From Patescibacteria group bacterium (lineage in GTDB: Bacteria > Patescibacteriota > Microgenomatia > Levybacterales > UBA12049): DNA of 64,000 nucleotides. Location: positions 12,148 to 76,147 of the forward strand of contig DATKGX010000048.1 of assembly GCA_035510555.1 (NCBI GenBank). The letters are read 5' to 3'. Every line of letters begins with the position of its first letter. The stretch's first letter is position 1. The notes beneath the pieces were generated by a model. The model was not told where the DNA came from and did no database searches. It saw nothing but the letters and a program-made list of their open reading frames with translations. Below are positions 324 through 40,681 of the stretch, piece after piece. The position numbers were made by a program, and so were the translations under genes.

Positions 324-1964
324 CTAGGAAAATCTTCCCTTTACAAACCTAAAGCTCAATAAACTTGCTAAAATTACCAAACTTGCTGCGGAGAGAAGAT
401 CACAAATTAGCCGTAACTTTGTCTCGGAATACTTTGCTTCAATCGTATAATTTCCTTGATTAAGAAAAAACAGCATGGTTCCTCGATATTGCATATTCTG
501 AAATTGAATAGTAACCGGTACGCTGTTAGCTAAAATCTCCCAACCCGGAAAATAGAGCGTATTTTCTTCAAATAAAGTTCTCTTTGCGACGTTCACCGTG
601 TAAAGATGATCCGTCGAGGTCCTTTTTATTTCTTTAATGGTTGCCTTACCGTCAAGCATTTCTAAATGGCTTTTTGGCGCATGCTCCATAAACCTTACCG
701 ACCAAAGAGGCGAACTCTCACCGGTATCAGTCGTACTAGGATATATACCGGTATAAAAACCGGCCGGTTTATATAAATAATCTTTGGCTTTAAAATAATC
801 CTTACTAATAAACAACACTATGGCGATTAAAATTAATACTAAAATGAGCTGCAATTTTTTGGGAATTTTAGAAATTAGCATAGCAGCTAATATTGCTGTT
901 GATAAAACAGCAATCGCCAGAAACCGCCAGGCAAATTGAAAGTTTTGCAGAAGAATTATTCTTTCCCAGAGAAAATTAGAGATGGGCAGCATTAAAAATA
1001 TTGCCAACAAGGTATATAAAAGGCATAACAATATAAGTAGATAATTTTTGTCTTTTTTCAACCAAAAGATAATAGCTAAAACCGGGGATAAGATTAATGC
1101 TAACCATTGAACTATTCCCAGTTGCTCTGTAAACATGCCGCTTCCGCCATAGCTCCAGGACCCGTAAATCAAGGCCTTCAAGCTAACAAAACTATCTTTA
1201 TACACTCCTTTTGTAATGATATTCCGAAGCGTATATCTTCCCTCAAGTAATGCCGGTGCCCAAAAGAATGCCGACAGAGTAAAGCCAAAAAGTATTAAGA
1301 ATAAAGTATTAAGTATTAAGTGTTTATTGAATTTGGATAACCAGACAAGATATAAACCGTAGAAAAATATAAACGGCACTGTAATAAGTGCAATCGCATT
1401 ATGTGCAAGAATTAAAAAGGCCAACGATAAAGAACCAAAGAGCGTATATCTAATGTCAGGGTTCTTATAAAGCTTGTAAAGAAAATATAAAACCAATGGT
1501 ACAAATGCGAAAGCCAGATTTTCGCCTATATCCCCTCTAACGTTGAGATCTACAAACCTGTAGGGAGCATATGTGTACAGAAAGGCTCCCAAAAGTGCCG
1601 GTTCTTTACCTAAGAATTGCTTGAGCCAGAAAAACATAAAGAATAAGGATAGAATCATCCCTAAACCGTAAACAATTTTTACTGAATCAACTAGGGAAAA
1701 GCCGAAAAAATGAAAAACAGAAGCTAAGTAGGATGGCAAAGGATATAAAAATTCCAAGATTGGGTGGCCATATCCCCAATTAAGATTTGCAGCCCATCTG
1801 GGAATTAAATTTCCTTCAATAAGATTTTGGTAGAAATTGGCGATCCGGGCAATATGATCTTGTCCGTCGTGTGTTATCGGCAAACCGGGATGCACAAGCG
1901 ATAAAACTGAAATAATCGAAAGCACAATTAGGATAGCGACGATAAATCTATTTCTTAACATCAT
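324..1964 (-). CDS. Short YfhO-like polytopic membrane protein (PF10131/PTPS-related membrane family candidate), putative GT-C glycosyltransferase
   Basis: 546 aa, many TM helices. N-terminal motif HDGQDHIARIANF...IPRW...NLNWGYGHP...FLYPLP. C-terminal YFPGWEI...IQFQNM...G module plus terminal TM shared with paralogs at 15143, 31059 and 32747 and with the YfhO proteins. Confidence 0.7.
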   Translation of the reverse strand: MMLRNRFIVAILIVLSIISVLSLVHPGLPITHDGQDHIARIANFYQNLIEGNLIPRWAANLNWGYGHPILEFLYPLPSYLASVFHFFGFSLVDSVKIVYGLGMILSLFFMFFWLKQFLGKEPALLGAFLYTYAPYRFVDLNVRGDIGENLAFAFVPLVLYFLYKLYKNPDIRYTLFGSLSLAFLILAHNAIALITVPFIFFYGLYLVWLSKFNKHLILNTLFLILFGFTLSAFFWAPALLEGRYTLRNIITKGVYKDSFVSLKALIYGSWSYGGSGMFTEQLGIVQWLALILSPVLAIIFWLKKDKNYLLILLCLLYTLLAIFLMLPISNFLWERIILLQNFQFAWRFLAIAVLSTAILAAMLISKIPKKLQLILVLILIAIVLFISKDYFKAKDYLYKPAGFYTGIYPSTTDTGESSPLWSVRFMEHAPKSHLEMLDGKATIKEIKRTSTDHLYTVNVAKRTLFEENTLYFPGWEILANSVPVTIQFQNMQYRGTMLFFLNQGNYTIEAKYSETKLRLICDLLSAASLVILASLLSFRFVKGRFS

Positions 1965-3243
1965 ATGGATTTAGTCCTTTCTGCCTCATGTAATAATAGT
2001 ACAAATAAGATTCGGGAACACCTACTTGGAACTCTATTCTTTGCCCTTGATTTATTGTCTGCATAGTATTTTCCCACCTCTTCGTTAAGCCAACATCATG
2101 ATAAGGTAAATAGGTCATTACATTTGTAAACGCAATATAAACTAGCACAATTAGAACAATCGCTTTGGGAATAATATTCTTTATCGTCCAAATCCTCCCT
2201 AGAAAATAGGCAATGATTAAAAGAGCGATGAATCGATTAATAACAAAATAGTAATCACTTATTTCCCCGCTATAAGTAGCAAATATAATCCAAGGAACAA
2301 TAAACCAGAGAAAAACCAAATAAGCAAATTTTTTTCTTTCCGTATTTAAAGCCTTGAAAAGATAGATAATAAAGAAAAGTGGCAACAAGACAACTTTAAA
2401 GGGAAACAGTTTATCGCTAAAGAGGTAAGTGTTGAATTGAATTAGCGCATCTCCCGTAATTTGAATCATTCTCTTCAAATGAAATCCGTGATAATAAGTT
2501 TGAAGATAGTCAGTAAAATTTGAACCTGTAGATTTTTGCTGAACTTGGTAAACAACATTCGGCACTAACCATACTAAAAACAATGGCAATGACAAAATTA
2601 TATACTTGAGAGTTTCTTTGCTTCTGGGGAAAAGCGGTAAAGTTAAAATAATAATTACCGGGAAGAAAATCGCGGTAAAATGTAAATTAAAAGCAAACCC
2701 CACTAATAAAGCCAAGGGAATAATTTTTTTTATGTCGCCGATAACTATTTTGTATAAAACGTAGAATATTAATAATGCAATTGCCGGAAGAAGATCAACC
2801 GGCCATTGTACTCTGTCAAAAAATATTGCAGGCAAAGAAAACGTATTGATAAAAACCGCAATTAAAGCTACCTCAGTTGAAAACAATTTCTTAGCGACAT
2901 AAAATATCACCCAAAAAGTAAAAATACTGCAAACTCCCGCAAAAACACTTGAGGCAATCGGATTTAATCTAAAAATCCAATAAGCCACGGCCAGCATATA
3001 ATAATAAACCGGCCCAATATAGATATTGCTATTTTCCTTGGCAACCATTCCAATTAAGGGAAACCAATGATTGACCAAAATGTTTTTTGCGGCCCAGGCA
3101 TTATCCACCTGATCATAACCAAATGCATTCTTTAGATCCATTTGGTAAAACCTGAGAAATATTTCAAATAAAAATATCGCTGCAACAACTACTATATATT
3201 TATTTTTAAGTAACCATTCCCAGTATTTATTAAATTTTTTCAT
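1948..3243 (-). CDS. Polytopic membrane protein, short ArnT/PMT-like GT-C paralog family
   Basis: 431 aa. Motif YDQVDNAWAAKNILVNHWFPLIGM...GPVYYYML is shared with the ORFs at 3247, 4819 and 11933. Multi-TM. Confidence 0.6.
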   Translation of the reverse strand: MKKFNKYWEWLLKNKYIVVVAAIFLFEIFLRFYQMDLKNAFGYDQVDNAWAAKNILVNHWFPLIGMVAKENSNIYIGPVYYYMLAVAYWIFRLNPIASSVFAGVCSIFTFWVIFYVAKKLFSTEVALIAVFINTFSLPAIFFDRVQWPVDLLPAIALLIFYVLYKIVIGDIKKIIPLALLVGFAFNLHFTAIFFPVIIILTLPLFPRSKETLKYIILSLPLFLVWLVPNVVYQVQQKSTGSNFTDYLQTYYHGFHLKRMIQITGDALIQFNTYLFSDKLFPFKVVLLPLFFIIYLFKALNTERKKFAYLVFLWFIVPWIIFATYSGEISDYYFVINRFIALLIIAYFLGRIWTIKNIIPKAIVLIVLVYIAFTNVMTYLPYHDVGLTKRWENTMQTINQGQRIEFQVGVPESYLYYYYMRQKGLNPYDVKK

Positions 3244-3246: not shown

Positions 3247-4815
3247 TTAAGCTTGCCTTTTTTGCACTATAAAACCGCTTGGTATTAAAGTTTTAGTATC
3301 TATAATTTTACCCGTTTTTATTACGGTTTCCATCCAACCCTTATAGGTCCAGGGTTGATTCATGTCTACCTGCATTAATAGATAGAAAGTTCCTTTCTTT
3401 TCCTGATAAGGAAAATAGTGATATTTTGGCTTTGCATACCACCAGAGAAGATAATCATATGGATAAGTATAAACGGGGGGCGTAAAAATATATAGCCCAA
3501 ACGGCTTACCTTTAGCATCCTTATAAATATAGTCTATTGCCTGCTCCTGACCTTTTATTTTTGCCGCGCCGCCAAGATCGGGATAATCTTTTATGGTCAT
3601 CGAAATAGCACTTGTTACGGAAGTAAGTAAAAATATAGCTATCGCTAAAATGGCTATTAATTTAGCTAAATGCGACTTTCCTTTAAAGATTTTATAGATT
3701 ATGTATGTAGCTATAAAAATATATATAACATCAAGGTGATAAAGATAATAATAGTAAACGAAATTCCTAAGTAGCGAAAGAACAGCCACGGTAACTAATA
3801 GTGTGATGAATAAATATTTTAGGAAATTCTTAAGAGTCGCTTCTTTTTCTCTCAATGTAAGAAAAACAAGCAGTGCAATAAAGGCTAAAAACAGCAAAGC
3901 GGAATATGGAGGAATATTTTTGATAGTAAAGGTGTTGAGAAAATTACTTACAAACGTAGATATATGATTGTTTAAAAGATTATCGTGAGCATTCGTTCTT
4001 AGGTAGACATTCGGCTGCACCAAAACATAGTTTATTATCCCTCTCGTTCCAATAAAGTTATGTCTTACTTCAAATAAAAGCATTGGTAAAATCCCGAGAA
4101 CAAATCCCATAAAAAGAGATAAATACTCTTTTACCTTATTAAGCTTAAGGATAAACACAACATAAAAAAGCAAAGCAACGCACATTGGGACTGCCATAGC
4201 AATTTCAAAATTATAAACAAAAACGGAAAAGAAAGCCGCTAGAAAAAGGTATTTCTTATCCTTCTTAAAAGCCTTGTAAGTAAAATAAAAAGCTAAAAAT
4301 ATAAAAAACGTTGATGGGTGATTATTCCAAATAAACCTGGCCTGGTCAATTAGAGGACTTGATATAGCAATAAAAAATGCCATTAGTGCGCCCGCCCATT
4401 GGTTTTTAAATATGGTTCTGGCAAAGAAATAAGCAAAGATAATGGAAGCCATACTAAACATAAACATCATTATCATTCCGCCATATGGATTTCCTTTGAA
4501 AAGCACAAAAAAGATTGAAAGAAGATAATAATAAACAGGCCCCTGGAAAATACCTTGGGTACCTGCGAAACCTCCTCCTATTTCTGAGCCTATTAGAGTA
4601 AACTTATGGTTAATAACTATATCTTTTACAGCCATGTAGTCTCTTCCTTGATCAATCAGAAAAAGATAATTGTTAGCTAAAATTTCAACGGCTCTTGGGA
4701 AAATGGAGAGAAAAATTATTAATCCTAAAAATAAAAAGAATATTGCGCGTCTTACTCTTTTATCTTCTAAAAACACACTCGCCTGTTTGATAACAGAATT
4801 GAAATTTACATTCAT
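3247..4815 (-). CDS. Polytopic membrane protein, short ArnT/PMT-like GT-C paralog
   Basis: 522 aa. DQGRDYMAVKDIVINHKFTLIGSE...GPVYYYLL. C-terminal GKPFGLYIFTPPVYTYPYDYLLWWYAKPKYHY is shared with 4819..6306. Confidence 0.6.
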   Translation of the reverse strand: MNVNFNSVIKQASVFLEDKRVRRAIFFLFLGLIIFLSIFPRAVEILANNYLFLIDQGRDYMAVKDIVINHKFTLIGSEIGGGFAGTQGIFQGPVYYYLLSIFFVLFKGNPYGGMIMMFMFSMASIIFAYFFARTIFKNQWAGALMAFFIAISSPLIDQARFIWNNHPSTFFIFLAFYFTYKAFKKDKKYLFLAAFFSVFVYNFEIAMAVPMCVALLFYVVFILKLNKVKEYLSLFMGFVLGILPMLLFEVRHNFIGTRGIINYVLVQPNVYLRTNAHDNLLNNHISTFVSNFLNTFTIKNIPPYSALLFLAFIALLVFLTLREKEATLKNFLKYLFITLLVTVAVLSLLRNFVYYYYLYHLDVIYIFIATYIIYKIFKGKSHLAKLIAILAIAIFLLTSVTSAISMTIKDYPDLGGAAKIKGQEQAIDYIYKDAKGKPFGLYIFTPPVYTYPYDYLLWWYAKPKYHYFPYQEKKGTFYLLMQVDMNQPWTYKGWMETVIKTGKIIDTKTLIPSGFIVQKRQA

Positions 4816-4818: not shown

Positions 4819-6306
4819 TTAATGAATTCTTGTTTGGACGATGATTCCGCCTTTTACCTCTTGAGATTTAATGATTCTTCCGTCCCCTTCTCTTTGGGTT
4901 AACCAATTTTCTAGCCTTGAGGGGTCTTGGAAATCGGGCTCCAGAATAAAATAAGCCAGATTTGCTTGTGTCTGAGGTGAATAGTGATACTTTTTAGGCC
5001 CATACCAATTAAAGAGATATTGATAGGTATAATCGTAAACTGGCGGCGTGTAGACAACGTACTTAAAAGGTTTTCCGCCTGATTGTTTGTAAACATAATC
5101 TATAACTGCAACTTGATTACGATAAACAGACGCATCTCCTTCCCATAAGGGCTTACCTATATTTTGAATTTGGGAATAAGGATTTAGATTAAAAAGAAAA
5201 ATTATTAGTGTTAATAAAATTGCCAATTTAGTCGAAAAATTTTTGGCCAATAGATAAACAGCGATTGCAAAAAGTAAAAGATAAAAAACCGGCAGACCAA
5301 CTAGATAATGAGGCCAAACATCATGACTAAAAAAAGTCAACCCAATTAGAAAAACTGCTACGACAATTAATGAAACTCTAATGAAATTTTTTATTATCCA
5401 GTCGGATTTTTTGTAAAAAAGCAAAATAGAGAAAACTATAAATACTAATTCGCATCCGACTAAAAGCTTATTGTCATTACTAAGAGTTGAGGCAAATTGA
5501 CTAAACAAAATATTTATTCTGCTTATTAAAATGCTTACGATGGAAGGCAGATTGTGCGAGGAATTACCTGTTGTAAAAAAGGCGATTAGCGCTTTTGTCA
5601 TCAAGAATTGGTGCCTAACTTCAAATATAATTCTCGGGACAAGAATTATTAGTCCTCCAAATATAAATGCGGCTATAGATTTTAAATTAAATTTTCTTTG
5701 AATTGATAATACGGCAAGAACTATTCCAATAGAGAATAAAATTCCATAAACAATTTCAATATCAATGCTTAGAACCAATAATATCCCTAAAAATAAATAT
5801 AACAATGGTTTATTCTTTTGATTTTTTGCAAAAATCTTATTTAGAATCAACAAAATAATAATGACAAACAATGGCGCGATGTTTGGATTCCAAATTTGCG
5901 AAGACAAAGAAACCATTATACCTGACACGCTGACTAGGACTGCTAAAATTAAACCTAAACTATTTCCGCCAACCTTTTTTCCAAAATAAAAACTTAAAAT
6001 TATTATCGAAATTCCAATTAGTGATATTGACAGAACTATTCCTCGTGGATCGCCGGAGAAGATAATAAAAAAAGGAGTCAACAGGTAATACCACCACGGA
6101 CCATAAAATATTCCCGGCAATCCGGTCGTCGCTCCAATCAGGGGAATTTTATGCAGATTAACAATCGCCGAAAGCGCCAGCATGTCCCGCCCGACGTCGT
6201 AAGTAAAAGCAAAAGAATTAGTTAGAACCCCTTGCAATCTTAAATAAGCACCAATCAAAACAACCAGGAATAAAACTAGATATTCTTTTTTGAAAAATTT
6301 CTTCAT
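4819..6306 (-). CDS. Polytopic membrane protein, short ArnT/PMT-like GT-C paralog
   Basis: 495 aa. YDVGRDMLALSAIVNLHKIPLIGAT...GPWWYYLL. C-terminal GKPFKYVVYTPPVYDYTYQYLFNWYGPKKYHY. Tandem paralog of the upstream gene. Confidence 0.6.
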   Translation of the reverse strand: MKKFFKKEYLVLFLVVLIGAYLRLQGVLTNSFAFTYDVGRDMLALSAIVNLHKIPLIGATTGLPGIFYGPWWYYLLTPFFIIFSGDPRGIVLSISLIGISIIILSFYFGKKVGGNSLGLILAVLVSVSGIMVSLSSQIWNPNIAPLFVIIILLILNKIFAKNQKNKPLLYLFLGILLVLSIDIEIVYGILFSIGIVLAVLSIQRKFNLKSIAAFIFGGLIILVPRIIFEVRHQFLMTKALIAFFTTGNSSHNLPSIVSILISRINILFSQFASTLSNDNKLLVGCELVFIVFSILLFYKKSDWIIKNFIRVSLIVVAVFLIGLTFFSHDVWPHYLVGLPVFYLLLFAIAVYLLAKNFSTKLAILLTLIIFLFNLNPYSQIQNIGKPLWEGDASVYRNQVAVIDYVYKQSGGKPFKYVVYTPPVYDYTYQYLFNWYGPKKYHYSPQTQANLAYFILEPDFQDPSRLENWLTQREGDGRIIKSQEVKGGIIVQTRIH

Positions 6307-7976
6307 GTTCCAACTATTTTTATGGCTGGGCTACCATCTAGATTGTTAATTATCTTAATCGCTCCGACACCCTTAGGAATTTCTGCCGGACTACCGATTA
6401 TTAGAGTATTTTTTAGACGCGAATCTTGACTCCAATTAATCGGTCTGAATGTATATTTTCCGAAAGAATGGTGCGAAACAAAACTACCTGAACTATTTTC
6501 GCCTATTATTTGATACTGCTCCGGAGGATATTGAAGATAAAATAAAAAGAACATGTAAGATTTATCAAGCGGCGGGAAGTCGGAAATAATAATGGTTTGA
6601 TATTTGTTTCCTATCGCTTTCACTTCGCTAACTGCCTGTTGGTAGCCGTATTGCCACTGCTCTGAATTATAATAATTTTGTTGGACAAAATACTGGTTAA
6701 AATAGTAAGTGACGTTAAAAATAAAAGCCACGGCAAAAATTAGATAAAAAACGAATTTCGTTCTTTTGTACTTATTGAAAAAGATGAAAGCATATAAAAT
6801 ACCAATTGCCGAAAGAATTTGCCAAGTCGGTAGAAAATTCAAAGTTCTAACCGCGTGCGGCACTCCGGTTGTAATCGAAGCCGGTACCGGCGCCAGCAAT
6901 AACCAACCGAAGACGACCAGTTTTGTCTTTTTGTCAAAATCACCAAACAAAAGAGTATAAATACCAAACAAAATAAAAGGCAACTCGAAAAGATACATAA
7001 TGCCCATCCCTGGCGCATGATGTCTTGCGATGTCACCTGTAATGAAAAGCCAATTCGGATCAAAATGGGAAATGTATCCCGAAACAATCGTTGAAACATA
7101 AATAAATCTTCGGTTGTCTATAATTAAGCCGAGCTTATCGTTATTTAAACTATCCCGCTGTAATTTCTGAATATCGTTACTTAAAAGCTCTGTCTGATAG
7201 GAAAAAATACTCGTTCCCGTAACTCTTAATAAAGCCGCCCGGTTGGTTGTAATATAGAAAAGCATTGGAGTAACTATGATTAATCCAAAAATTACAACGG
7301 CGAACAGGTATTTTTTGGAGAGCGCGAATAATTTTTTCCAATAGATTATTGCCAATAAAAGTATAAATAATGGCGTAAAAACTTTTTCGCTTTGATAAAC
7401 ATAAATACTTAACCCCGCAAAAAGCGCCGCCACAAATAAATACCACCGCTTACTGTTTACTCCCTTGATTAGAAACAAGGCGGCCAAAAGATTTAAAATA
7501 TCCCCTACGTTTGCTTCGAAAGCAACTCTTGAGAATTGCAATGACCAGGGAGATATCGCCAACATAAAACTGGCGACTAAGGCTAATGGATCTTTATATT
7601 TAAAGTCCCGGAAAAGTTCTTGAACAAGATAGAAAACGGCAATAACCGAAATTATGCCAAAAAGCGCTGAAGGTAGCCTAACCGCAAAAATATTCAATCC
7701 CAACATAGCAACTGTCGGAATTGCCAGATAAGCGTATAAGGCCGGCTTGTAATCGTCGAATGAACGAAGCACCACTGGCAGAAACTTGCCGAATTCATCC
7801 CGCCCGGTGTGCATAATTGAGTAAGCATCGTATCCTAATGCGGCCTCGTCCCAATCCGGCGAAGGAGGAACGCTGCCCAGCTGCCAAAGCCTTAGTCCCG
7901 CGGCGAGAATTATAATAGCAATCAATAATATCCATACTTTTGAAAATTGAAAATTGAAAATTGAAAATTTTTTCAT
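6303..7976 (-). CDS. GT39 family (PMT-like) polyprenyl-phosphate-sugar-dependent membrane glycosyltransferase
   Basis: 557 aa. N-terminal loop-1 DE motif SPDWDEAALGYDAYS and multi-TM topology typical of PMT/GT39. 4-nt overlap with the upstream gene. Confidence 0.8.
   Translation of the reverse strand: MKKFSIFNFQFSKVWILLIAIIILAAGLRLWQLGSVPPSPDWDEAALGYDAYSIMHTGRDEFGKFLPVVLRSFDDYKPALYAYLAIPTVAMLGLNIFAVRLPSALFGIISVIAVFYLVQELFRDFKYKDPLALVASFMLAISPWSLQFSRVAFEANVGDILNLLAALFLIKGVNSKRWYLFVAALFAGLSIYVYQSEKVFTPLFILLLAIIYWKKLFALSKKYLFAVVIFGLIIVTPMLFYITTNRAALLRVTGTSIFSYQTELLSNDIQKLQRDSLNNDKLGLIIDNRRFIYVSTIVSGYISHFDPNWLFITGDIARHHAPGMGIMYLFELPFILFGIYTLLFGDFDKKTKLVVFGWLLLAPVPASITTGVPHAVRTLNFLPTWQILSAIGILYAFIFFNKYKRTKFVFYLIFAVAFIFNVTYYFNQYFVQQNYYNSEQWQYGYQQAVSEVKAIGNKYQTIIISDFPPLDKSYMFFLFYLQYPPEQYQIIGENSSGSFVSHHSFGKYTFRPINWSQDSRLKNTLIIGSPAEIPKGVGAIKIINNLDGSPAIKIVGT
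7942..7969. repeat. Heptanucleotide tandem repeat (GAAAATT)x4 inside the 5' coding end of the GT39 gene 6303..7976
   Basis: Four exact 7-nt units, located 5-32 nt downstream of the ATG (minus strand). Encodes FSIFNFQFS. Confidence 0.7.
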
Positions 7977-11324: not shown

Positions 11325-11914
11325 TTTTTGGCGACAAACCACATATTCATACCCAACTCAAAAAAACCACTTCTTATGTTGGCCTGACTAAATCCTCCAT
11401 CTCCGATTATATCCTCTATTCTTTCTTTTGAGTGATTGTGTTTATGCTCATGAATCTCCTCGGCGCTTATCAGTCCCACCTTAGCCATTTGATGCAACAG
11501 TTTATCGGACCAGGGAGCAGGTGTTGTAATAATTAATAATCCACCTTTTTTTAAAATTCGATATATTCCCTTAATAACTGGCATTAAATCATTATGCTCG
11601 ATGTGCTCAAATACTGCCAACATCGTAACAACATCAAAAAAAGCATTTTTAAATGGGAGCTTTTGCTTAGCAACGTCCAACCTTTGGAGATTAATGTCGT
11701 CAACTGATAATGAATTAAGCGATGGATCTACCCCGTATTTCTGCTTAAAATTTATCGTTGTTAAAAAGTAAGGAAAAGAACCACACCCGATGTCCAAAAT
11801 CTTTCCTTGTCTAAAAGCTTTTGAGATAAGAGCATTTGCTTTATTCGCCCGCTCCCTGGCTAAAAGACCTTCTAATAATCCCCATCCTCTTGTTATATTA
11901 ACTGCGTCAGACAT
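11321..11914 (-). CDS. Class I SAM-dependent methyltransferase
   Basis: 197 aa. Motif I ILDIGCGSFPY and the acidic residue after beta2. Methyltransf_11-like. Confidence 0.8.
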   Translation of the reverse strand: MSDAVNITRGWGLLEGLLARERANKANALISKAFRQGKILDIGCGSFPYFLTTINFKQKYGVDPSLNSLSVDDINLQRLDVAKQKLPFKNAFFDVVTMLAVFEHIEHNDLMPVIKGIYRILKKGGLLIITTPAPWSDKLLHQMAKVGLISAEEIHEHKHNHSKERIEDIIGDGGFSQANIRSGFFELGMNMWFVAKK

Positions 11915-11932
11915 ATTAATCTAAAGACTCTT

Positions 11933-30363: not shown

Positions 30364-31066
30364 AATTAAAACTTAAATCTTTCCAAAGCGACAAACTTTC
30401 TCTTACAGCTCTTACAATTACTCTTAAATTCCCTCCGCTTTGATCCCCATAAATCCGCGGATAATGGTTTACTTCTACTTGTATGATTTTTAAATGCGCT
30501 TTTTTTGCTTTGGCTAGAATTTCGGTTGTTATCATCGCGCCCTCTGACTGAAAAGGCAGGATTTTATTTAAAGCGTCTTTTTTAAAAAGCTTAAAACCAC
30601 AATCGATATCTTTGAAGTGAAAGTTGAAAAGTAAAAAATCCCACACTTTTAGCATATTCATTAAAATATGCCGAAAAGGATTATCCAGTCTCTTTTTTCG
30701 ATAGCCTATGACCATATCTGCGTTTTCAATTCTTTCCAAAAACTTTGTTACTTCCGAAAAATCAAATTGCCCATCGCCGTCACTAAAAACGACCAAGTCA
30801 TATTTTGCTTTGGCAAAACCTGTTTTAAGCGCTGCTCCGTATCCCCTATTTTTCTCGTGAGAAACAACGCTTAAGTTTGGATTTTGTTTGGCTAAATTTT
30901 GAGCAATTTCTAAAGTTTTATCTGACGAACCATCGTCAACCATTATAATTTCCCATTTATTGACGACTTTTTGCAGCACGGGAATTGCTTTTTTAATCAC
31001 CGCTTCGATATTATCCTGCTCATTCCAAAATGGGAAAAAAACTGATAGCTCTGAAACTTTATGCAT
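30350..31066 (-). CDS. GT2 glycosyltransferase, DPM1-like polyprenyl-phosphate sugar synthase candidate
   Basis: 238 aa. LSVFFPFWNEQDNIEAV...IMVDDGSSDKT...FSDGDGQF. Confidence 0.75.
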   Translation of the reverse strand: MHKVSELSVFFPFWNEQDNIEAVIKKAIPVLQKVVNKWEIIMVDDGSSDKTLEIAQNLAKQNPNLSVVSHEKNRGYGAALKTGFAKAKYDLVVFSDGDGQFDFSEVTKFLERIENADMVIGYRKKRLDNPFRHILMNMLKVWDFLLFNFHFKDIDCGFKLFKKDALNKILPFQSEGAMITTEILAKAKKAHLKIIQVEVNHYPRIYGDQSGGNLRVIVRAVRESLSLWKDLSFNYGRS

Positions 31067-34306: not shown

Positions 34307-36656
34307 AAATTACCGTTAAGAATAACGCTAATAAACCCAAGACCGCAATCCCCAAGCCCAATTCAAAAGTTTTCGGACTATAATAGAATTCCACAATATG
34401 TTCTCCTTTTGGTATCGCCACTGCCCGGAAGGCATAATCTGCCAGCATAAGCTCCGTTGGCTTTTCATCAATGGTTACTTTCCAATCCGGATAATAATTA
34501 TCCGAAATAAATAATAGCTCGTTGCCTGAAGTTTTAGTATTAAAAAAAACTTTATTTGGAGAATATGAAATAAGTTTTACTTCTCCGCTCGAGTTTTTAT
34601 CAATAGTGAGGCCCGGTAATTTTTCTAAAATTAGCGTTTTCCCTAAATCGGCAGTATAAATTGCGCTTAAAGCTTGAGCTTTATTTTTTACCAAAACAAA
34701 ATCACTGGTCAAGAAAAATCTTGGCAAAGCATTTTTGTTTTCATAAACCTGCCAAGGATATATTTTTTCAACTAGGGTGAATTGATCCGCAGGAAAAGTG
34801 CTGAAATCCGTTTGAAGCCAAGTGTCAACCATATCTTGATAATTAAGGACATATTTAATGCCTAGCAGATTGAGAATTCTTTGCCGAAAATAATTTGTCT
34901 TTAAATCATTAACTCCATACCCGGGCGCAATATTGGCATCTGGTCTTGGTAGCATTTGCGGTAACTTACCATTTATTGATGACGCTAATAATTCTCCGTA
35001 TCTGGAAATGTGCAAAGGGTCATTGCCTTCAGGCGAAAAAGTTTGGTCAACGCTTTGGTAGTTCGCCTGGATATAAGCCGAACCGTATCCCCAATACCGG
35101 TTAATGCCGGCGATATTTTGAAGATAAGAAGTAATTGGTGTTTGCGGATAAGTCAACTCGCTTGGCGCAAATGGCGTAATTTTGTTGAAAAAATAGAACA
35201 GATCAAATATCACCAACAGTGTCAATAAAACCAAGCTGATTTTAAGATTTATCCTTTTTAGAAAAACTGCCAAAATCGTTAACAAAATAAGAACGCTGGG
35301 AAGAATTAAATTGTGCTCGCTGATTTTTAGATTTGCGGAAAGCGCCGGAGAAAATTTAATCAGAAATAAAACTGCTCCCCACACCAGTATCAAAAAAACG
35401 ATGAATCCAACCGCAAATATTTTTTTAAAAGATTTCTCGTTTATAAACTGGTTTAATCCGATTGCGCCTAAAACTATCAAACTGAAAATTAAGATGCTGA
35501 ATTCCCTGGTGGCGACAGTTGTTGAGATAACCGGGATTGGAATCAGGTAAAAATATTTAACCAGTGGAAGATTAGTGGCAATAATCAAAGAAACTGCGGC
35601 AACAACCAAGAAAAACTTTTTTTCGAGAGAATTAACCTTGTTGAAAATCGCGTAAATTGCAAAGAAAAGAATGACAATTCCCGGATACATCACCCTTTCA
35701 ATGTAAGTTCCGTCTATCCAATAATTCCGGGTGGCCGGATTGCCAAAGAAATCCGGGATAGCGATAGTTATCCAGTATTGAAGCGGCGCCAAATTCTTTC
35801 CAATCTGTGCTAACGTATATGCTCCTCTGGTAGACTGGGAAAAAAGCTGCAGGGTTGGTAAAATCTGAAAGGAAGTTAATAAAAACGGTAGCGCTAAAGA
35901 GAGTAGAAATAGCAGATGAATCCTGAGTAGTCTCAGTTTTTTTTGCGCGAACATTAAGCATAAGTAGTAGAAAAGGCAAAGAACATAAACATAAAAAACT
36001 CCCTGAATATAACCGGCCAGAATTGCCACAGAAAGAGTGGCGACCAGCGCAAGAAAGTTTTTGCTATTTATTTTTTGTGACATATATTTAATTACTAAAA
36101 GCACCAGCGGAAGCCATAATATGGTGCTACCGATATTTCCGTACTCAAGCCAAACCGTCATATATGAAGAAAAACCAAACGCAATTCCACCGATAACAGC
36201 GGGGAAATCCTTAAGCCCGACTCCTTTTCTAAGGAATAAATACATGAAAAGTGCGGCCAGAAACGGTTGGAACATAATGATTAACGTCCAGGAGAAATTA
36301 AAAGGTAGTAAAAAATACAAAAAATTGAGTGGATAGAAAACGGCTGTTTGAAAATCTGCCAGTTGCGGATTGCCCGAAAAATTATAGGGATTCCAGAAAG
36401 GAATGTTGCCTTGTTTTAGTTGATTAACGGAAAAATAGCGCCAGGGATAGATTTCGCTAATTACATCCTGACCTTGCGCTTTGTTTGGGTATCCATTTGG
36501 AGCAAACCCTAAAAAAGACTGCGCCCGATAGGGATTGGTGTTCACCAAAAGATCGCCGGGAAAAGGAATTTGCCCTTTAAAAATTGGGTAGAAAAATACG
36601 AGAACAACAATCGTGATTAGAATAAAAGGCCAAAAGCGTATCACCTTTTTCATCAT
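34284..36656 (-). CDS. YfhO family polytopic membrane protein
   Basis: 790 aa. C-terminal SDNYYPDWKVTIDEKPTELMLADYAFRAV...GEHIVEF plus terminal TM. Confidence 0.75.
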   Translation of the reverse strand: MMKKVIRFWPFILITIVVLVFFYPIFKGQIPFPGDLLVNTNPYRAQSFLGFAPNGYPNKAQGQDVISEIYPWRYFSVNQLKQGNIPFWNPYNFSGNPQLADFQTAVFYPLNFLYFLLPFNFSWTLIIMFQPFLAALFMYLFLRKGVGLKDFPAVIGGIAFGFSSYMTVWLEYGNIGSTILWLPLVLLVIKYMSQKINSKNFLALVATLSVAILAGYIQGVFYVYVLCLFYYLCLMFAQKKLRLLRIHLLFLLSLALPFLLTSFQILPTLQLFSQSTRGAYTLAQIGKNLAPLQYWITIAIPDFFGNPATRNYWIDGTYIERVMYPGIVILFFAIYAIFNKVNSLEKKFFLVVAAVSLIIATNLPLVKYFYLIPIPVISTTVATREFSILIFSLIVLGAIGLNQFINEKSFKKIFAVGFIVFLILVWGAVLFLIKFSPALSANLKISEHNLILPSVLILLTILAVFLKRINLKISLVLLTLLVIFDLFYFFNKITPFAPSELTYPQTPITSYLQNIAGINRYWGYGSAYIQANYQSVDQTFSPEGNDPLHISRYGELLASSINGKLPQMLPRPDANIAPGYGVNDLKTNYFRQRILNLLGIKYVLNYQDMVDTWLQTDFSTFPADQFTLVEKIYPWQVYENKNALPRFFLTSDFVLVKNKAQALSAIYTADLGKTLILEKLPGLTIDKNSSGEVKLISYSPNKVFFNTKTSGNELLFISDNYYPDWKVTIDEKPTELMLADYAFRAVAIPKGEHIVEFYYSPKTFELGLGIAVLGLLALFLTVIYVKKNKS

Positions 36657-38185
36657 CGGTTGGGCGGGATTATTTGATAAACTCGGTAATAAAAATTCGT
36701 GTCTCCTTGTCTAACTTCAAAAACCAACTTGAGCGGAAAATCAATCGGGATTACCACATGCTGCGATTGGTAGAAAACGAAATAGGCAGGCATTTTCTCG
36801 GCATAATTTAACGTTGTTTTAGGGAAAATATCCACCGGCCAGTAACCTTTAACTGTAATATTTTTATCATTACCCAAATACATTTCTAAAGATTCCGGCA
36901 ATAAACCAAAGGTCCCTTCTGTAGCGACAAATATTTTTTGGCTCTCAGATTGTTTCTTAAAAAAAGCAACACTTTCTTTAATTCCCCAACCGGCCGCCCA
37001 GCTGTCAACGTATTGTCCATGATCCGCATCGGCAATTGGCGCTTTTAAGGGATTGATGGCAAAAAGTAACGAAATATACAGAGGATAAGCAATAACCGCT
37101 AATAATAGTATCAGTTGTAAAACTTTTGCATAAGAAACGTTTTTCGGAAAGAACTCTTCGGCTTTTTCAAATAAATAATTTAATGACCAAGCCACCAACG
37201 GCAAAAGCATTACGCTCATTAAAAAGACGAACCTTGGATAAATTAATCTGCCGAAGAGTGCCAGAGCCAGAAACGGCAACGCAAAATACAGCAGTAATAA
37301 AACTTTTTCTTTGAAAAATTTATTAATGAATATTATTGCCAGCAGAACCAAAATTAGGTACGCAGGTGTTAAGTACTGCAAAAGCCAACTGGTAAGTCCG
37401 CTCAAATTACTATTGAAGTAGATAAACGGATGCTGGAACCACTCGGAAAACGGGTAGACAAACGTGGCATTTTTAATCGCAATCATGTCATATAAAGGAG
37501 AGAGTCTTAAGACATTGTAAAGACCATAACTAATAGCTGCAGCGAAAACTGCAAGCGCTGCGAATTTAAATAATTGTTTCTTGACGAATTTCTGTTTAAA
37601 GTTAAAAAGAATTAGTAAGAATGGCAATAAATAGATGCTAAAAAAATTTGAACTTTTGGTTAGAACTCCCCCGCCGATAACAAAACCGAGTGTATAAGCA
37701 ATATTCAATCTGACTTTTCTGACCAAAAGAATAGAAAAATAGAGCGCCCAAACGTAAAAGGTCGCCACCATGCTGTCATACAAAGCCATCCTATCTAAGA
37801 CTTGAGCGAAAGGATAAACAATATATAAAGCAACGGTAAGAAAAGCGGTTCGTTTGTTTTTAAAAAGTTCGTAGGTTAGAGCAAAAAGGCCGAGCATGGT
37901 GAAAAAACCTGAAAGAACCGAAACTAATCTTCCGGCAATAAGCGGATCCTTAATAAATTTTATGAAAACCATTGCAACCCACACAAACATCGGCTGTTTA
38001 CCGTCAGTTAGGGATATAAACCGCCATGCAGCGTCATTTAAAGCAATCTGCGCCCACCTAACATAAATTGCCTCATCGGTAAAGATTGGCAATCGATTGA
38101 GAAAAATTAAACGGAGAACAAAATAAGCTGCAACAAGAAGGATGGAAGTGAGTATTTCCCATTTATACTTCAAAACAAGCTTCAT
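36653..38185 (-). CDS. ArnT/GT39-GT83-like polytopic membrane glycosyltransferase
   Basis: 510 aa. N-terminal LPIFTDEAIYVRWAQ (DE motif) followed by about 11 TMs. Confidence 0.55.
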   Translation of the reverse strand: MKLVLKYKWEILTSILLVAAYFVLRLIFLNRLPIFTDEAIYVRWAQIALNDAAWRFISLTDGKQPMFVWVAMVFIKFIKDPLIAGRLVSVLSGFFTMLGLFALTYELFKNKRTAFLTVALYIVYPFAQVLDRMALYDSMVATFYVWALYFSILLVRKVRLNIAYTLGFVIGGGVLTKSSNFFSIYLLPFLLILFNFKQKFVKKQLFKFAALAVFAAAISYGLYNVLRLSPLYDMIAIKNATFVYPFSEWFQHPFIYFNSNLSGLTSWLLQYLTPAYLILVLLAIIFINKFFKEKVLLLLYFALPFLALALFGRLIYPRFVFLMSVMLLPLVAWSLNYLFEKAEEFFPKNVSYAKVLQLILLLAVIAYPLYISLLFAINPLKAPIADADHGQYVDSWAAGWGIKESVAFFKKQSESQKIFVATEGTFGLLPESLEMYLGNDKNITVKGYWPVDIFPKTTLNYAEKMPAYFVFYQSQHVVIPIDFPLKLVFEVRQGDTNFYYRVYQIIPPNR

Positions 38186-38222
38186 ATAAAGATTATAGTA
38201 GAACTGTGGTATCTAATCAACG

Positions 38223-38732
38223 CTAGCTTGTAACTTGTTGCTGAGGAGCATCTTGACTACTACGGAAAACCTCTGCAATAGCTCCCAGAGCTTTTGGTCC
38301 CCAGGTGAGCAAATCTTCTCCGTTCATTTCCTGACCGACATTATCAATTAAGATTCCACTAAAACCTCTAAAACTTATCATTCTTTCTGTGCGTTTTTCT
38401 ACCTTACCGTCAGACGTAACAAAAATTCCTGTTTTGTCATCAAGCACTCCTATCCTTAACAAAGCTTCCTGATGATAAGCATTTAAAAGATTTACCATCG
38501 ACCATGTATTGACCACGTTTGCCGAAGGGAAGATTCCCTGACTACACATTAAGTCAGCAAATCTCGCAATTTCACTCGCATACTGAGTTCCCAATTCCCG
38601 TCTATCAGCATCCGTTCGATCGAATACTCTCTGGACTTCCTCAGTACAATAGGTTATTACGTTAAATTCTAATCTACCCTTTCTTTCATCCATAGCGAAA
38701 GCGATTATATTCCGAAGGTTATTGAAAGTCAA
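38223..38732 (-). CDS. Hypothetical soluble protein (169 aa)
   Basis: Long ORF with cluster-like codon usage, no TM and no recognisable motif. Confidence 0.5.
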   Translation of the reverse strand: MTFNNLRNIIAFAMDERKGRLEFNVITYCTEEVQRVFDRTDADRRELGTQYASEIARFADLMCSQGIFPSANVVNTWSMVNLLNAYHQEALLRIGVLDDKTGIFVTSDGKVEKRTERMISFRGFSGILIDNVGQEMNGEDLLTWGPKALGAIAEVFRSSQDAPQQQVTS

Positions 38733-39911
38733 CTATAAGATTTTGCGGGTCTTGATTAGAAGAGACAAAACGAAAACTATTAGAACGGCGACTAGGCCGG
38801 CAATTTCAATATTTTGGATTATTTGCGGGTAGCCTTTGGCATAATCGGTCATAAAGACATAAGGAATATAAATTCCTACGGCAAAAATTGACGCAACAAT
38901 TGCCGGAATTGAAATATATTTTTCGTGAGCTACAAACGCCGCCATTGATAGCGGAAACACTAAATACCATGGCTGAAAAGTCGTTCGAATACTGGCGAGC
39001 AGAACCGTTGTCAAAGATAAAATTACTGAAGCGATAAAAAACTTTTCCCAGTTTATTTTTCTGCCTGTTCTATCAAAAAATCCGATGAGAATGAACAGCG
39101 GCAAAAGCGCACCGGTAGAAAACTTAACGCCAATGGAAAAAAGATTACTGACCCAGGATAAAACTTTTTTCTTTTGCAGAAAAAGGTAAATTGAAAGAAG
39201 AATAAAAAATATCATCGGAATGTCGTTATGCGCCGAAACTAAAGATTCAATTAAAACCAGTGGGTTAAAGGCAAAAAAGGCGACATTGAATAATTTATGT
39301 TCAGGGAAAATTCTTGCGGAAATCTTGTAAATTAAATAACAGCTACCTAAAAAGGATAGCGCCATCAGGATTTTAAAAAGGAAAAAAGTCGGCAAAAAAT
39401 AATCCATGCCAATAAAAGTTAAAGGTACGGTTAAAACCAACCAACTTGGGCCATATGGATAAGTGCGCTGAGTCCAACGCATGAAATTAAGCATCGGGTC
39501 ACCTACAAAATCCGAAGGCCTATGGAAATATGGATTTAATTGATAATGCGAAATAATTCTGGCGTCAAAAATATAGTTGAATAAATCATACGAAAATGCA
39601 TTATAAGAAAACACTAAAATAACGGCGGTTAAAATAGTGAGGATAGTTAAAGCTTTGAGCTTAAGCTTGCCTTTCTTTGCCAAATATAAAAACGCGCAAT
39701 AGAAAATAAATAATAAACTGGCTATGACAATAAAGATCAAAGTCGAAAGAGGACGCTCAAAAAAACCGATATGCTGAAGAAATTTTTCAACGGTCTGATA
39801 AATTGACAGTTTTGATAGGGTTAAATTTAAATCGACTTGCGTAAAAGAATAAATGAAAAAACCTACGAGAATAAAAATGTAGGAGGAAAAAAGAAGCCTT
39901 AATTTGTTCAT
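38733..39911 (-). CDS. Polytopic membrane protein, DUF2029/GT87-like mannosyltransferase candidate
   Basis: 392 aa. YDLFNYIFDARIISHYQLNPYFHRPSDFVGDPMLNFMRWTQRTYPYGPSWL resembles the first periplasmic loop of GT87/DUF2029 proteins. Confidence 0.4.
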   Translation of the reverse strand: MNKLRLLFSSYIFILVGFFIYSFTQVDLNLTLSKLSIYQTVEKFLQHIGFFERPLSTLIFIVIASLLFIFYCAFLYLAKKGKLKLKALTILTILTAVILVFSYNAFSYDLFNYIFDARIISHYQLNPYFHRPSDFVGDPMLNFMRWTQRTYPYGPSWLVLTVPLTFIGMDYFLPTFFLFKILMALSFLGSCYLIYKISARIFPEHKLFNVAFFAFNPLVLIESLVSAHNDIPMIFFILLSIYLFLQKKKVLSWVSNLFSIGVKFSTGALLPLFILIGFFDRTGRKINWEKFFIASVILSLTTVLLASIRTTFQPWYLVFPLSMAAFVAHEKYISIPAIVASIFAVGIYIPYVFMTDYAKGYPQIIQNIEIAGLVAVLIVFVLSLLIKTRKIL

Positions 39912-40681
39912 AAATTTCTGTATTTCCCCGAAATATCGTTTAATTTGATTCTGACTAAATCTTCTACCGCTTCTAAGGAATCTTTTATCGGACTGACTCT
40001 TCGACTTTCAACATAAAACCATTCAACCGGAACTTCCTTAATTTTATAGCCCATTTTTTGGGCCAGAAATAGTAACTCAACATCAAATCCGGCTTTGACT
40101 GATGATCCGGAAATTTCTTTATAACCATTATGGAATTTCTGTAAGCTTGTAAAAAGCTTATCCGAAACGTCTTTTCTAAAAAGTTTGAATCCGCATTGCG
40201 TATCTTGGATTCCCCTCAGTCCTACGATTACAGACCTTAACACGATCATTCCTCTGGCCATCAAAAGCCGTGTCCACGGATCGCCTTGGCGCTTCGAGCC
40301 CCTACTACCAATCACAATATCGTATTCCTTAACAAATGGCAGAAGCTTGGCTACTTCTTCTACCGGCGTTGCCTGATCCATATCCATAAAAAGGGCATAC
40401 TCGCCTTTTGCTTTTAAGATTCCTGATGTGACGGCGCCCGCCTTTCCAAAATGGGAAGTTTTTATTAAACTAAATCTGGGATTATCTTTGATGAATTCTT
40501 CGACTAACTCGATGCTTCCATCGGTTGAGCCATCATCGACGATGATTACCTCCGATAAGTATTTTTGCCTTGAAAGAAACCGTTCAATCTTATCTAGAAC
40601 TCCTTTACGAAGATTTGTTTTTTCGTTATATGAGGGGACTACAATCGAGAGATAAATTTTACTCACACAAAGATTATACAA
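39908..40681 (-). CDS. GT2 glycosyltransferase, DPM1-like
   Basis: LSIVVPSYNEKTNL...IIVDDGSTDGS...FMDMDQA. The true start may be the GTG at 40666 (VSKIYLSIVVP), which lies 6 nt downstream of a TATAAT at 40673-40678 (minus strand) in the leaderless arrangement seen elsewhere. Confidence 0.75.
   Translation of the reverse strand: MYNLCVSKIYLSIVVPSYNEKTNLRKGVLDKIERFLSRQKYLSEVIIVDDGSTDGSIELVEEFIKDNPRFSLIKTSHFGKAGAVTSGILKAKGEYALFMDMDQATPVEEVAKLLPFVKEYDIVIGSRGSKRQGDPWTRLLMARGMIVLRSVIVGLRGIQDTQCGFKLFRKDVSDKLFTSLQKFHNGYKEISGSSVKAGFDVELLFLAQKMGYKIKEVPVEWFYVESRRVSPIKDSLEAVEDLVRIKLNDISGKYRNL

Follow-up and report, generated by a model that had tools for sequence, protein, structure and literature searches.

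LM/LAM and arabinogalactan of mycobacteria and corynebacteria are assembled by Ppm1 with MptA, MptB, MptC, PimE, EmbA-C and AftA-D, and the genes for actinobacterial GT-C membrane glycosyltransferases are scattered over genomes of 3-4 Mb or more. By contrast, the locus described here, from an ultra-small, uncultured Candidatus Levybacteria bacterium (CPR/Patescibacteria) found in peat, gathers at least 22 GT-C genes in one same-strand block of a genome of ~1 Mb. Most of its families (PF10131, YfhO and PMT_2) differ from those of mycobacteria, no decaprenyl-phosphate-arabinose pathway genes were seen in it, and the likeness is one without demonstrated orthology, with GT-C identities to solved enzymes all at or below 16%. 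The ALG/GPI mannosyltransferases of the eukaryotic ER lumen (ALG3, ALG9, ALG12, ALG6 and PIG-M), from another domain of life, offer an analogy only (9-16% identity), and the locus is without a Dol-PP-GlcNAc2 pathway.

Three-component systems (GtrA/B/V; CsbB-GtcA-YfhO; GacI/J/K/L; pentofuranose systems, PMC11127046) share with the locus the combination of a GT2 polyprenyl-phosphate-sugar synthase, a flippase and a GT-C. The locus likewise contains three YfhO-family members and a flippase of the MOP type, like the MOP-family flippase that serves the polyprenyl-phosphate-sugar three-component systems of PMC11127046, but no GtrA-family flippase was found in it. Whereas each such module has one GT-C and adds a single side-chain sugar, 18-22 GT-C here share three candidate synthases, which lack the C-terminal transmembrane (TM) helices of GtrB and ArnC. 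The Pgf protein O-glycosylation system of Streptococcus mutans (PgfS, PgfM1, PgfE and PgfM2) comprises a GT2 synthase, two YfhO-like GT-C and an epimerase, and few named NCBIfam models match two of the candidate synthases (g22 and g29) and the YfhO paralogs, PgfS, PgfM1 and PgfM2 being some of them. However, these matches reach 20-76 bits where the cut-offs are 500-1500, the PgfM alignment is limited to the C-terminal ~80 residues, and the scale differs about tenfold. No description of the present block was found in the literature searched.

The window, the whole 64,000-nt stretch of DNA analysed, contains at positions 324-40681 a run of 29 consecutive complete minus-strand ORFs (g01-g29), encoding 18 GT-C, seven GT2, one GT4, one Wzx flippase, one methyltransferase and one non-conserved ORF. 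A thirtieth gene, x1 (a GT2 of 261 aa, PF00535, minus strand), is cut by the left window edge, with only its 5′ part inside (1-310); its start lies 13 nt past the g01 stop, as seen by mapping window positions 1-323 onto L083, and it shares 37% identity with g20. Same-population contigs carry this run on for ~24 kb beyond the left edge, on the same strand, to about −24372, so the 40-kb size first given to the cluster is an effect of the window edge. The whole run measures ~65 kb and holds 54 genes, including at least 22 GT-C, and genes for glycan synthesis extend over at least 79 kb. Outside the window, the run in this population adds four further GT-C, a second Wzx flippase, two further GT4/GT1 genes (x8, 369 aa), a GT1-type gene of 368 aa, GT2s, methyltransferases, epimerases, an NTP-transferase and a split transketolase. 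The block may be transcribed as one or a few units; promoter and terminator scans of the cluster gave no more matches than chance. The GC content of the cluster (0.32-0.39) lies within or slightly below the range of the flanks (0.35-0.43), and therefore nothing marks a recent import.

Fifteen of the 18 GT-C in the window score above the Pfam bit cut-offs (PTPS_related, 26.4; PMT_2, 26.1; PMT, PF02366, 22.7; YfhO, 28.5), another is clearly their paralog, and the remaining two are assigned by predicted fold. The initial annotation had proposed at least 17, and its grouping (four, four, one, four, three and one) was reproduced, with g13 as an eighteenth; profiles and folds place these membrane proteins in GT-C, not in non-glycosyltransferase families. 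An Asp or a DE pair directly after TM1 is kept in every GT-C family. PMT_2 family B consists of four paralogs, each 542-573 aa long and bearing a DE motif in loop 1, namely g05 (6303-7976; PMT_2, 46.6 bits; motif WDEAALGYDAYS), g06 (7973-9601; PMT_2, 63.5 bits; PMT, 45.3 bits), g07 (9621-11342; 47.1 bits; 'NDEA') and g10 (13437-15134; 36.8 bits; 'TDEA'), with g05 36% identical to both g06 and g10. The four shorter PMT_2-type paralogs of family C are g02 (1948-3243; 29.7 bits; 11 TM segments; loop-1 'YDQ'; a paralog of g03), g03 (3247-4815; 36.5 bits; a paralog of g04, E 4e-56), g04 (4819-6306) and g09 (11933-13435; 29.3 bits; a paralog of x2, 32%). A Pfam search with g04 gave no match even at E 10, and its assignment rests on paralogy with g03 (29% identity over 508 aa, E 3e-59), nine TM segments and the conserved loop-1 Asp.

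The PF10131 family A, described as short YfhO-like, comprises g01 (324-1964; PTPS_related, 40.4 bits; ~9 TM segments; conserved loop-1 Asp within 'HDG'), g11 (15143-16792; 41.7 bits), g23 (31059-32750; 56.7 bits) and g24 (32747-34306; 41.6 bits); g01 is 29-32% identical to the other three, and the C-terminal region of g11 resembles the YfhO C-terminus. The full-length YfhO family D contains g15 (20338-22620; YfhO, 84.1 bits; 12 TM segments), 35-36% identical to g17 (23977-26322; 92.3 bits; C-terminus like PgfM2 and PgfM1) and g25 (34284-36656; 121.6 bits). Two further members stand apart, the 510-aa PMT_2/PMT singleton g26 (36653-38185; PMT_2, 51.1 bits; PMT, a borderline 23.2 bits against the cut-off of 22.7; loop-1 'FTDEAIY') and g28 (38733-39911), a small GT-C of the MptA_B family (PimE/ALG3/PIG-M-like). 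The 647-aa g13 (17461-19404; 12 TM segments) had no match in a Pfam search; judged by its predicted fold, it is a member of a GT-C-fold family for which Pfam has no model, and in structure it comes closest to the archaeal oligosaccharyltransferase AglB, C-terminal globular domain included. Sequence searches of solved structures gave no match for g06 or g25, nor for any other GT-C tested, save an ArnT profile match at E 0.03.

The window holds seven complete GT2 genes, or eight with the truncated x1, rather than the ten of the initial annotation. Three of them, small, soluble and earlier singled out as DPM1-like, can be aligned almost end to end with models of polyprenyl-phosphate enzymes (AglJ, ArnC, PgfS, PpgS and Dol-P-hexose transferase), whereas the other four match the same models over the N-terminal ~100 residues only. 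The first, g12 (16759-17460; PF00535, E 5e-36), has AglJ as its top NCBIfam match (E 2e-37, residues 3-228), with Dol-P-hexose transferase, PpgS and ArnC also matching, and its closest solved relative is the Pyrococcus Dol-P-Man synthase 5mlz (E 3e-17, residues 1-211). The top NCBIfam match of g22 (30350-31066; PF00535, E 1e-29) is ArnC (E 4e-23, residues 2-217), followed by PgfS, and g29 (39908-40681; PF00535, E 3e-27), the first gene of the run, matches PgfS, ArnC, PpgS and Dol-P-hexose transferase over residues 17-245 of 257. None of the three has a TM segment, and no membrane partner was identified for them. By sequence, g12, g22 and g29 are thus candidate polyprenyl-phosphate sugar synthases, which probably use different sugars since their mutual identity is only 27-34%. 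Two of them head runs of GT-C genes, g29 followed by g28-g23 and g12 followed by g11-g01.

The remaining GT2s are g14 (19404-20336; PF00535, E 5e-29; Glyco_tranf_2_3), of Leloir type with one C-terminal TM segment and MftF and EpsD as top NCBIfam matches; g18 (26319-27080; PF00535, E 2e-19), 38% identical to g20; the rhamnosyltransferase-like g19 (27073-28077; PF00535, E 7e-18; TIGR01556, E 2e-24); and g20 (27990-28907; PF00535, E 9e-24). Profile matches also confirmed the GT4 of GT-B fold (g16, 22617-23696; Glycos_transf_1, E 1e-21), the SAM-dependent methyltransferase without TM segment (g08, 11321-11914; Methyltransf_23 and Methyltransf_11, E ~1e-13) and the Wzx/MOP-family flippase (g21, 28909-30363; Polysacc_synt_3, E 6e-51; NCBIfam MOP flippase, E 3e-38; further matches to O-glycosylation flippase and TuaB). 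None of the cluster's enzymes reached an NCBIfam equivalog cut-off and the GT-C tested had no solved-structure match beyond the ArnT profile one, so donor and acceptor specificities are guesses.

A search of related genomes found the core gene order again in dozens of Levybacteria species: g21 has orthologs in 76 GTDB species (40-89% identity), and the order g23-g22-g21 is kept at 59 of the 76 loci. Paralogs within the cluster are only 22-38% identical, while the positional ortholog of each reaches 45-89% in many Levybacteria species, so the duplications are ancient, older than the Levybacteria radiation; the 'locally duplicated modules' of the initial annotation, if taken as recent duplication, do not agree with this. 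Its observation of the cluster is partly confirmed and its interpretation, surface protein or S-layer/pilin glycosylation, partly supported.

Taking the gene content, conserved loop-1 residues and synteny together, we consider it likely that the run in the window belongs to an envelope-glycan super-operon, conserved across the Candidatus Levybacteria lineage, that works as an extracytoplasmic assembly line. At the cytoplasmic face, Leloir enzymes (g14, g18, g19, g20 and g16, with more downstream) would build lipid-linked sugars from nucleotide sugars, for whose supply the downstream end of the block encodes epimerase, dehydratase and nucleotidyltransferase enzymes, and the DPM1/ArnC/AglJ-like g29, g22 and g12 would load single sugars onto polyprenyl phosphate. 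Two Wzx/MOP flippases, g21 and the downstream copy, may carry the lipid-linked sugars across the membrane, where the GT-C, at least 18 of them in the window and at least 22 over the full block, would use them as donors, each probably forming a different linkage, and together extend, branch or decorate a glycoconjugate of the cell surface that the methyltransferases could further modify. A genome of ~1 Mb would thereby commit a same-strand block of at least 65 kb to at least 22 membrane enzymes attaching sugars outside the cell. As a rough estimate, a wall-linked or lipid-linked glycopolymer has about an even chance of being the acceptor, surface proteins a distinctly smaller one, and both or something else the rest.

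A protein glycosylation machine, in which PMT-like, YfhO/PgfM-like and AglB-like GT-C modify S-layer, pilin or adhesin proteins, is possible though clearly less probable than the assembly line; as one tentative proposal, some GT-C would transfer single polyprenyl-phosphate sugars in PMT or Pgf style and g13 would be an oligosaccharyltransferase for en bloc transfer of a Wzx-flipped oligosaccharide. The PMT-type DE motif of family B and g26, PF02366 scores of g06 and g26 above cut-off, the PgfM1- and PgfM2-like C-termini of YfhO paralogs, the PgfS likeness of g22 and g29, the O-glycosylation flippase match of g21 and the AglB match of g13 are consistent with it. However, the NCBIfam matches among these all fall far under curated cut-offs, and the window ORFs scanned, several without a family match, yielded no pilin, S-layer or other candidate glycoprotein gene. 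To our knowledge, no protein-glycosylation system comes near more than 20 distinct GT-C. With two Wzx, four GT4/GT1, more than ten GT2 and about eight enzymes for sugar nucleotides or related sugar precursors, the block suits a glycopolymer or lipoglycan no less well than it does protein glycosylation.

Decoration by three-component modules, of Gtr type or for pentofuranoses, is known (PMC11127046), which, with several groupings of donor synthase and GT-C, speaks for many independent Gtr-like modules decorating a simple backbone glycan made elsewhere, the GT-C paralogs making the surface pattern variable, with effects on phage or host recognition, rather than forming a sequential assembly line. 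Differences between species in the g01-g11 half and the g13 and g27 slots, around a fixed central core, agree with such diversification, which we nevertheless regard as unlikely. Between several peat metagenomes, contigs of this population share 99.8-100% identity without gene-content switching (the few differences, 111-nt insertions, look like assembly artefacts), only three candidate donor synthases face the 18 GT-C of the window, and the fixed order of core paralogs across dozens of species argues for non-redundant, constitutive roles. Two Wzx, several GT2/GT4 and sugar-nucleotide genes are also the usual content of classical Wzx/Wzy-dependent capsule or exopolysaccharide loci, in which the GT-C-annotated proteins would be polymerases, ligases or non-enzymatic membrane scaffolds rather than glycosyltransferases with polyprenyl-phosphate-sugar donors. 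This is very improbable, as these proteins match GT-C families and folds and keep catalytic loop-1 acidic residues, and the ~79 kb encode neither a priming phosphoglycosyltransferase nor a Wzy polymerase, a chain-length regulator (Wzz) or an export component. An LCP ligase and a GtrA flippase are absent as well, which, with the missing priming enzyme, polymerase and chain-length regulator, leaves the initiation and attachment steps of the favoured assembly line unaccounted for.

At 27 of the 28 junctions in the run, the overlap or gap is at most 37 nt, in line with the gaps under 40 nt first noted, and the apparent 88-nt overlap of g19 and g20 disappears with the start site of public gene callers (g19 likely starts at 27987, giving 304 aa). 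The 280-nt junction at 23697-23976 is occupied by a conserved plus-strand gene (23763-24032), overlooked in the initial annotation, for a DUF5652 small membrane protein of 89 aa (PF18893, E 8.7e-24), called in public assemblies and present on the opposite strand between g17 and g16 orthologs at 52 related loci, so the block is neither strictly co-directional nor free of gaps above 40 nt. This gene interrupts the run and was counted against the super-operon reading. The soluble ORF g27 (38223-38732, minus strand) has no family match in Pfam or NCBIfam and no homolog in any related locus, and most relatives have g28 and g26 as direct neighbours, with 40-110 nt between them.

On the minus strand between 324 and 40681, 29 complete open reading frames (ORFs) follow one another (g01 to g29, numbered from 324 upwards), and a 30th minus-strand gene, which begins at 310 and is cut off by the window edge, encodes a GT2 of 261 aa. 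Neighbouring genes overlap or are separated by at most 37 nt at every junction except one, a 280-nt gap at 23697-23976, and g19 and g20, which seemed to overlap by 88 nt, no longer do so when the start codon of the public gene calls is used. The co-directional 40-kb block proposed in the initial annotation is therefore right as to its 29 tightly packed genes, except that the 280-nt gap holds a gene on the opposite strand and that the size was understated. A promoter and terminator scan of 22000-41000 returned 56 promoters versus 53 expected from shuffled sequence and 21 terminators versus 19.6, and since these counts equal the shuffled expectation, the scan was uninformative on operon structure.

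The block contains 18 GT-C genes, one above the minimum of 17 put forward initially, together with seven complete GT2 genes where ten had been counted, and the GT4 (g16), Wzx flippase (g21) and methyltransferase (g08) were all confirmed. Fifteen GT-C proteins exceeded Pfam gathering cut-offs and three more were supported otherwise. PMT_2 matched g02 (1948), g03 (3247), g05 (6303), g06 (7973), g07 (9621), g09 (11933), g10 (13437) and g26 (36653), with an additional PMT (PF02366) match passed only by g06 (45.3 bits) and, at the borderline, by g26 (23.2 bits; cut-off 22.7); PF10131 matched g01 (324), g11 (15143), g23 (31059) and g24 (32747), and YfhO matched g15 (20338), g17 (23977) and g25 (34284). 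No Pfam match was obtained for g04 (4819), a full-length paralog of g03 (E 3e-59), and AF2 modelled g13 and g28 as helical bundles. The GT87/MptA_B family is represented by g28, through a PF26314 match and a PimE-like small GT-C fold. Profile or fold matches tie the set to recognised GT-C families, and a hydropathy scan predicted 7-12 transmembrane (TM) segments in all 18 candidates. None of the proteins reached the curated (equivalog) cut-offs of NCBIfam.

All 18 GT-C proteins keep an acidic residue directly after TM1, in a first loop predicted to face the outside of the membrane. The loop carries a DE motif in g05, g06, g07 and g10 (family B) and in g26, a single conserved Asp in families A, C and D, an invariant YDLFNYIFDA in g28 and an invariant D133 in the g13 family. 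All-against-all BLASTP recovered the paralog groups that had been proposed, namely family A (g01, g11, g23, g24; 28-32% identity), family B (29-36%), family C (g02, g03, g04, g09; 22-29%) and family D (g15, g17, g25; 34-36%), and the low within-family identities of 22-36% mark the duplications as old; recent duplication, as the initial phrase 'locally duplicated modules' might suggest, is not supported. In their C-terminal part, family A proteins resemble the C-terminus of YfhO, in agreement with the earlier label of short YfhO-like genes. The full-length YfhO profile (PF09586) scored 84-122 bits against g15, g17 and g25 (cut-off 28.5), with a C-terminal TM segment predicted in g17 and g25, and on this sequence evidence the three are assigned to the YfhO family. 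Among solved structures, neither g06 alone nor the family-B profile significantly matched Pmt1, Pmt2 or Pmt4, the sole match of the profile being ArnT (E 0.031), and sequence searches with g06, g25 and g28 against solved structures found nothing.

The g13 family reaches far beyond the block, as an exhaustive profile search collected 2014 representatives at 50% identity, of which 931 had E 1e-30 or better. The majority are 630-670 aa in length, and some are fusions of ~1150 aa; in the members of that length that we designate P0263, P0276, P0282, P0292, P0294, P0296 and P0298, the g13-like GT-C forms the C-terminal half and the N-terminal ~495 aa had no significant Pfam match. A 615-aa protein encoded beyond the left edge of the window (x6) is homologous to this family (hhalign probability 94.8%, E 5e-8), and Pfam matched neither x6 nor any of five sampled family members. 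The slot held by g13 was found in the window lineage and in 0 of 76 related loci.

Of the seven GT2s, g12, g22 and g29 aligned across the GT2 domain through its C-terminal acceptor/interface region, g12 to positions 2-216 of 293 in AglJ and over residues 1-211 to the Pyrococcus Dol-P-Man synthase 5mlz, g22 to positions 3-216 of 316 in ArnC, and g29 to positions 3-208 of 213 in Dol-P-hexose transferase. PgfS and PpgS were also among the models to which these proteins aligned along most of their length, with all polyprenyl-phosphate scores below equivalog cut-offs, and such alignments support the suggestion that small DPM1-like GT2s could make the donors. The other four GT2s matched Leloir-type models (rhamnosyltransferase, EpsD, MftF, SunS) and aligned to polyprenyl-phosphate enzymes over the N-terminal ~100 residues only. 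C-terminal TM helices anchor GtrB, ArnC and archaeal DPMS, and soluble polyprenyl-phosphate synthases also exist, including human DPM1, the Ppm1 catalytic domain and PpgS. No TM segment was predicted in g12, g22 or g29, and no partner protein was found for them. Each of these candidate donor synthases heads a run of GT-C genes, and g21 encodes a MOP/Wzx flippase, a superfamily that serves three-component systems based on polyprenyl-phosphate-sugar (PMC11127046).

The best-supported model is an extracytoplasmic glycan assembly line that would be fed by lipid-linked donors, because of the synthase alignments, the MOP/Wzx flippase and the position of the synthases at the head of GT-C runs. In such a line, the GT-C enzymes would use polyprenyl-phosphate-linked sugar donors on the outside of the membrane, with the sugar identities, order of action, acceptor and the steps of initiation and attachment all putative. 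The proposed line is conceptually like the three-component decoration systems and mycobacterial lipomannan/lipoarabinomannan synthesis (PMC3485146, PMC2157549). Across the window and its extension there are two Wzx flippases, as a Wzx/Wzy pathway would have, but no PF00953, PF02397, Wzy or Wzz was found in the window or the 38-kb extension, nor was any priming phosphoglycosyltransferase, LCP ligase or GtrA encoded within ~79 kb. An oligosaccharyltransferase of the STT3, AglB or PglB type (GT66) was sought in g13, whose C-terminal domain lacks the WWDYG motif. Extracytoplasmic glycosylation, as initially interpreted, is well supported; the protein or S-layer acceptor that came with that interpretation is not.

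The opposite-strand gene that fills the 280-nt gap, overlooked in the initial annotation, encodes an 89-aa DUF5652 membrane protein (23763-24032, plus strand; E 8.7e-24) and overlaps the end of g17 at its own 3' end. The gene recurs in 52 related loci, there too antisense and placed between the orthologs of g16 and g17, and it is pure speculation that its product might act as a membrane partner of the soluble GT2 synthases, in the manner of GacJ or DPM3. An ORF without assigned function, g27 (38223-38732, minus strand), sits between g28 and g26 at a variable position that holds unrelated inserts of 0.6-1.6 kb in several relatives. None of the related loci contained a g27 homolog, and in relatives g28 mostly lies next to g26, which rules out g27 as a conserved accessory factor.

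We traced the block leftwards on a 143,913-bp contig of the same population, where the genes continue on the same strand. Nearest the window are a GT2, a family C PMT_2 gene, an epimerase and a 187-aa signal-anchored protein, followed by a second MptA_B gene, x6, a family A PF10131 gene, a GT4 and the second Wzx, and then by two short ORFs, one of 66 aa without assigned function and one a 166-aa GT2 fragment. Farther on lie a GT4, a methyltransferase, a GT2, an epimerase, another GT2, an SDR and a GT1-type gene, then a 304-aa protein without assigned function, an epimerase, an NTP-transferase and two epimerase/dehydratase genes, and last a split transketolase (N-terminal 273 aa and C-terminal 304 aa; 14578-16310 of the retrieved stretch L172). 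The split transketolase adjoins four epimerase/dehydratase genes and the NTP-transferase, an arrangement that may point to an unusual sugar, for example a branched or two-carbon-extended one. The same-strand run ends at about window position -24372, and it therefore spans ~65 kb with 54 genes, at least 22 of them GT-C.

Past this end come two opposite-strand methyltransferases, then two GT2s, three large proteins and a TylF-like methyltransferase, which extends the span of glycan-related genes to at least 79 kb. The large multi-TM proteins (1159, 1009 and 673 aa; 11049-20242 of stretch L174) lack Pfam matches, show a YfhO-like architecture, with ~9-11 TM segments at the N-terminus, then a large outer domain and a last TM helix at the C-terminus, and alternate with smaller proteins (97 and 112 aa), for which the number of TM segments is 2-3. 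None matched the g13-family profile, and the 673-aa protein alone matched g01 weakly (E 1.6e-4); they may be further GT-C-like enzymes and were left out of the GT-C count. Among related genomes, the longest single contig measures 936 kb and one complete chromosome, from Daviesbacteria, 821 kb, and we infer that the locus takes up ~6-8% of a roughly 1-Mb genome.

Proteins identical to those of the cluster are encoded on contigs of peat metagenomes, Stordalen Mire among them, that share 99.8-100% DNA identity with the window, and orthologs of g21 (40-89% identity) were found in 76 GTDB species genomes. The lineage-named genomes among these are nearly all Candidatus Levybacteria/Levyibacteriota, with a few Daviesbacteria, Gottesmanbacteria and Shapirobacteria, and many records are labelled just Patescibacteria, 'bacterium' or, implausibly, Gammaproteobacteria. 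Gene order is conserved across species: g23-g22-g21 is kept in 59 of the 76 loci, g24 to g18 in 36, g21 to g15 in 32 and g29-g28-g26 in 24, with a median of 7 GT-C genes per full 21-kb locus. Recent horizontal import is unsupported, because the cluster and its flanks have similar GC contents and synteny extends across the lineage. Apparent strain-level variation in gene content, a longer g16 and a split methyltransferase, came down to two 111-nt insertions relative to the window in one WOOD18 scaffold (L002 16847-16960, inside g16; L083 421-531, at the g08/g07 junction), which are probably assembly artefacts. In one relative whose GT4 is 64% identical, genes for PEPcase_2, transaldolase, a 3-dehydroquinate-synthase-like protein, HpcH aldolase and a TPP enzyme come after the cluster (L088 15120-21052) and may constitute a sugar-phosphate cyclase or cyclitol-type pathway.

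CPR/Patescibacteria have tiny genomes and miss many core pathways, and to our knowledge little is known of how they build their surface or of its role in host attachment. A lineage-wide share of ~6-8% of the genome given to extracytoplasmic glycosylation suggests that the glycan is central to their biology. We found no paper linking CPR, Patescibacteria or Levybacteria with GT-C, GT39, YfhO or ArnT; the remark on one Microgenomates genome is limited to '29 glycosyl transferases' (PMC7143001), and the terms glycan, glycosyl, polysaccharide, S-layer and teichoic are all absent from a 2024 perspective on Patescibacteria biology. The parts and logic of the cluster are of known kinds; new are its scale, its contiguity, the fact that it is conserved although the genome is reduced, and a GT-C family hitherto unmodelled. 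The g13 family that the block reveals is a widespread GT-C-fold family awaiting a Pfam model. We tentatively raise the possibility, on balance a doubtful one, that Levybacteria, and perhaps Microgenomates at large, make their main surface polymer nearly wholly outside the membrane, in a single line whose GT-C enzymes, at least 22 in number, are all encoded by one 65-79-kb super-operon. If so, synthesis of the lipoarabinomannan/arabinogalactan type would have a counterpart outside the actinobacteria, these episymbiont-like cells would contact their hosts through the glycan, the g13/x6 family would belong to the assembly line, and we would know of no denser GT-C locus. With its three candidate donor synthases, its two flippases and its more than 20 divergent GT-C enzymes, the block supplies a testable set for heterologous biochemistry, and the cluster offers a natural catalogue of GT-C specificities for use in glycoengineering.

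On the right, a 314-aa ORF (40757-41701, plus strand) without a match in Pfam or NCBIfam diverges from the first cluster gene, g29, across a 75-nt spacer. Between the glycan cluster and a tRNA-Glu(CTC) (45502-45576) sits a small efflux-type operon (41704-45405, minus strand) that encodes an MFS transporter, two HlyD-type membrane-fusion proteins and a MarR regulator. A 14.5-kb mobile element is integrated at the tRNA (45567-60083), flanked by an exact 19-nt direct repeat, CTGGCGGTACTCAGTGAGA, at 45567-45585 and 60065-60083. Within it, the gene for a large serine recombinase (45557-47089, minus strand) overlaps the 3' end of the tRNA. The element also encodes a VirD4/TraG-like coupling protein of 940 aa (48165-50987) and, next to it, a relaxase-like protein (51047-51922), and the cargo ORFs include AAA_33 kinase-like, hydrolase, GNAT, NUDIX, DUF5680 and DUF3800 proteins. 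Beyond the element lies a gene for a 611-aa NodU/CmcH-type carbamoyltransferase (61823-63658, minus strand).
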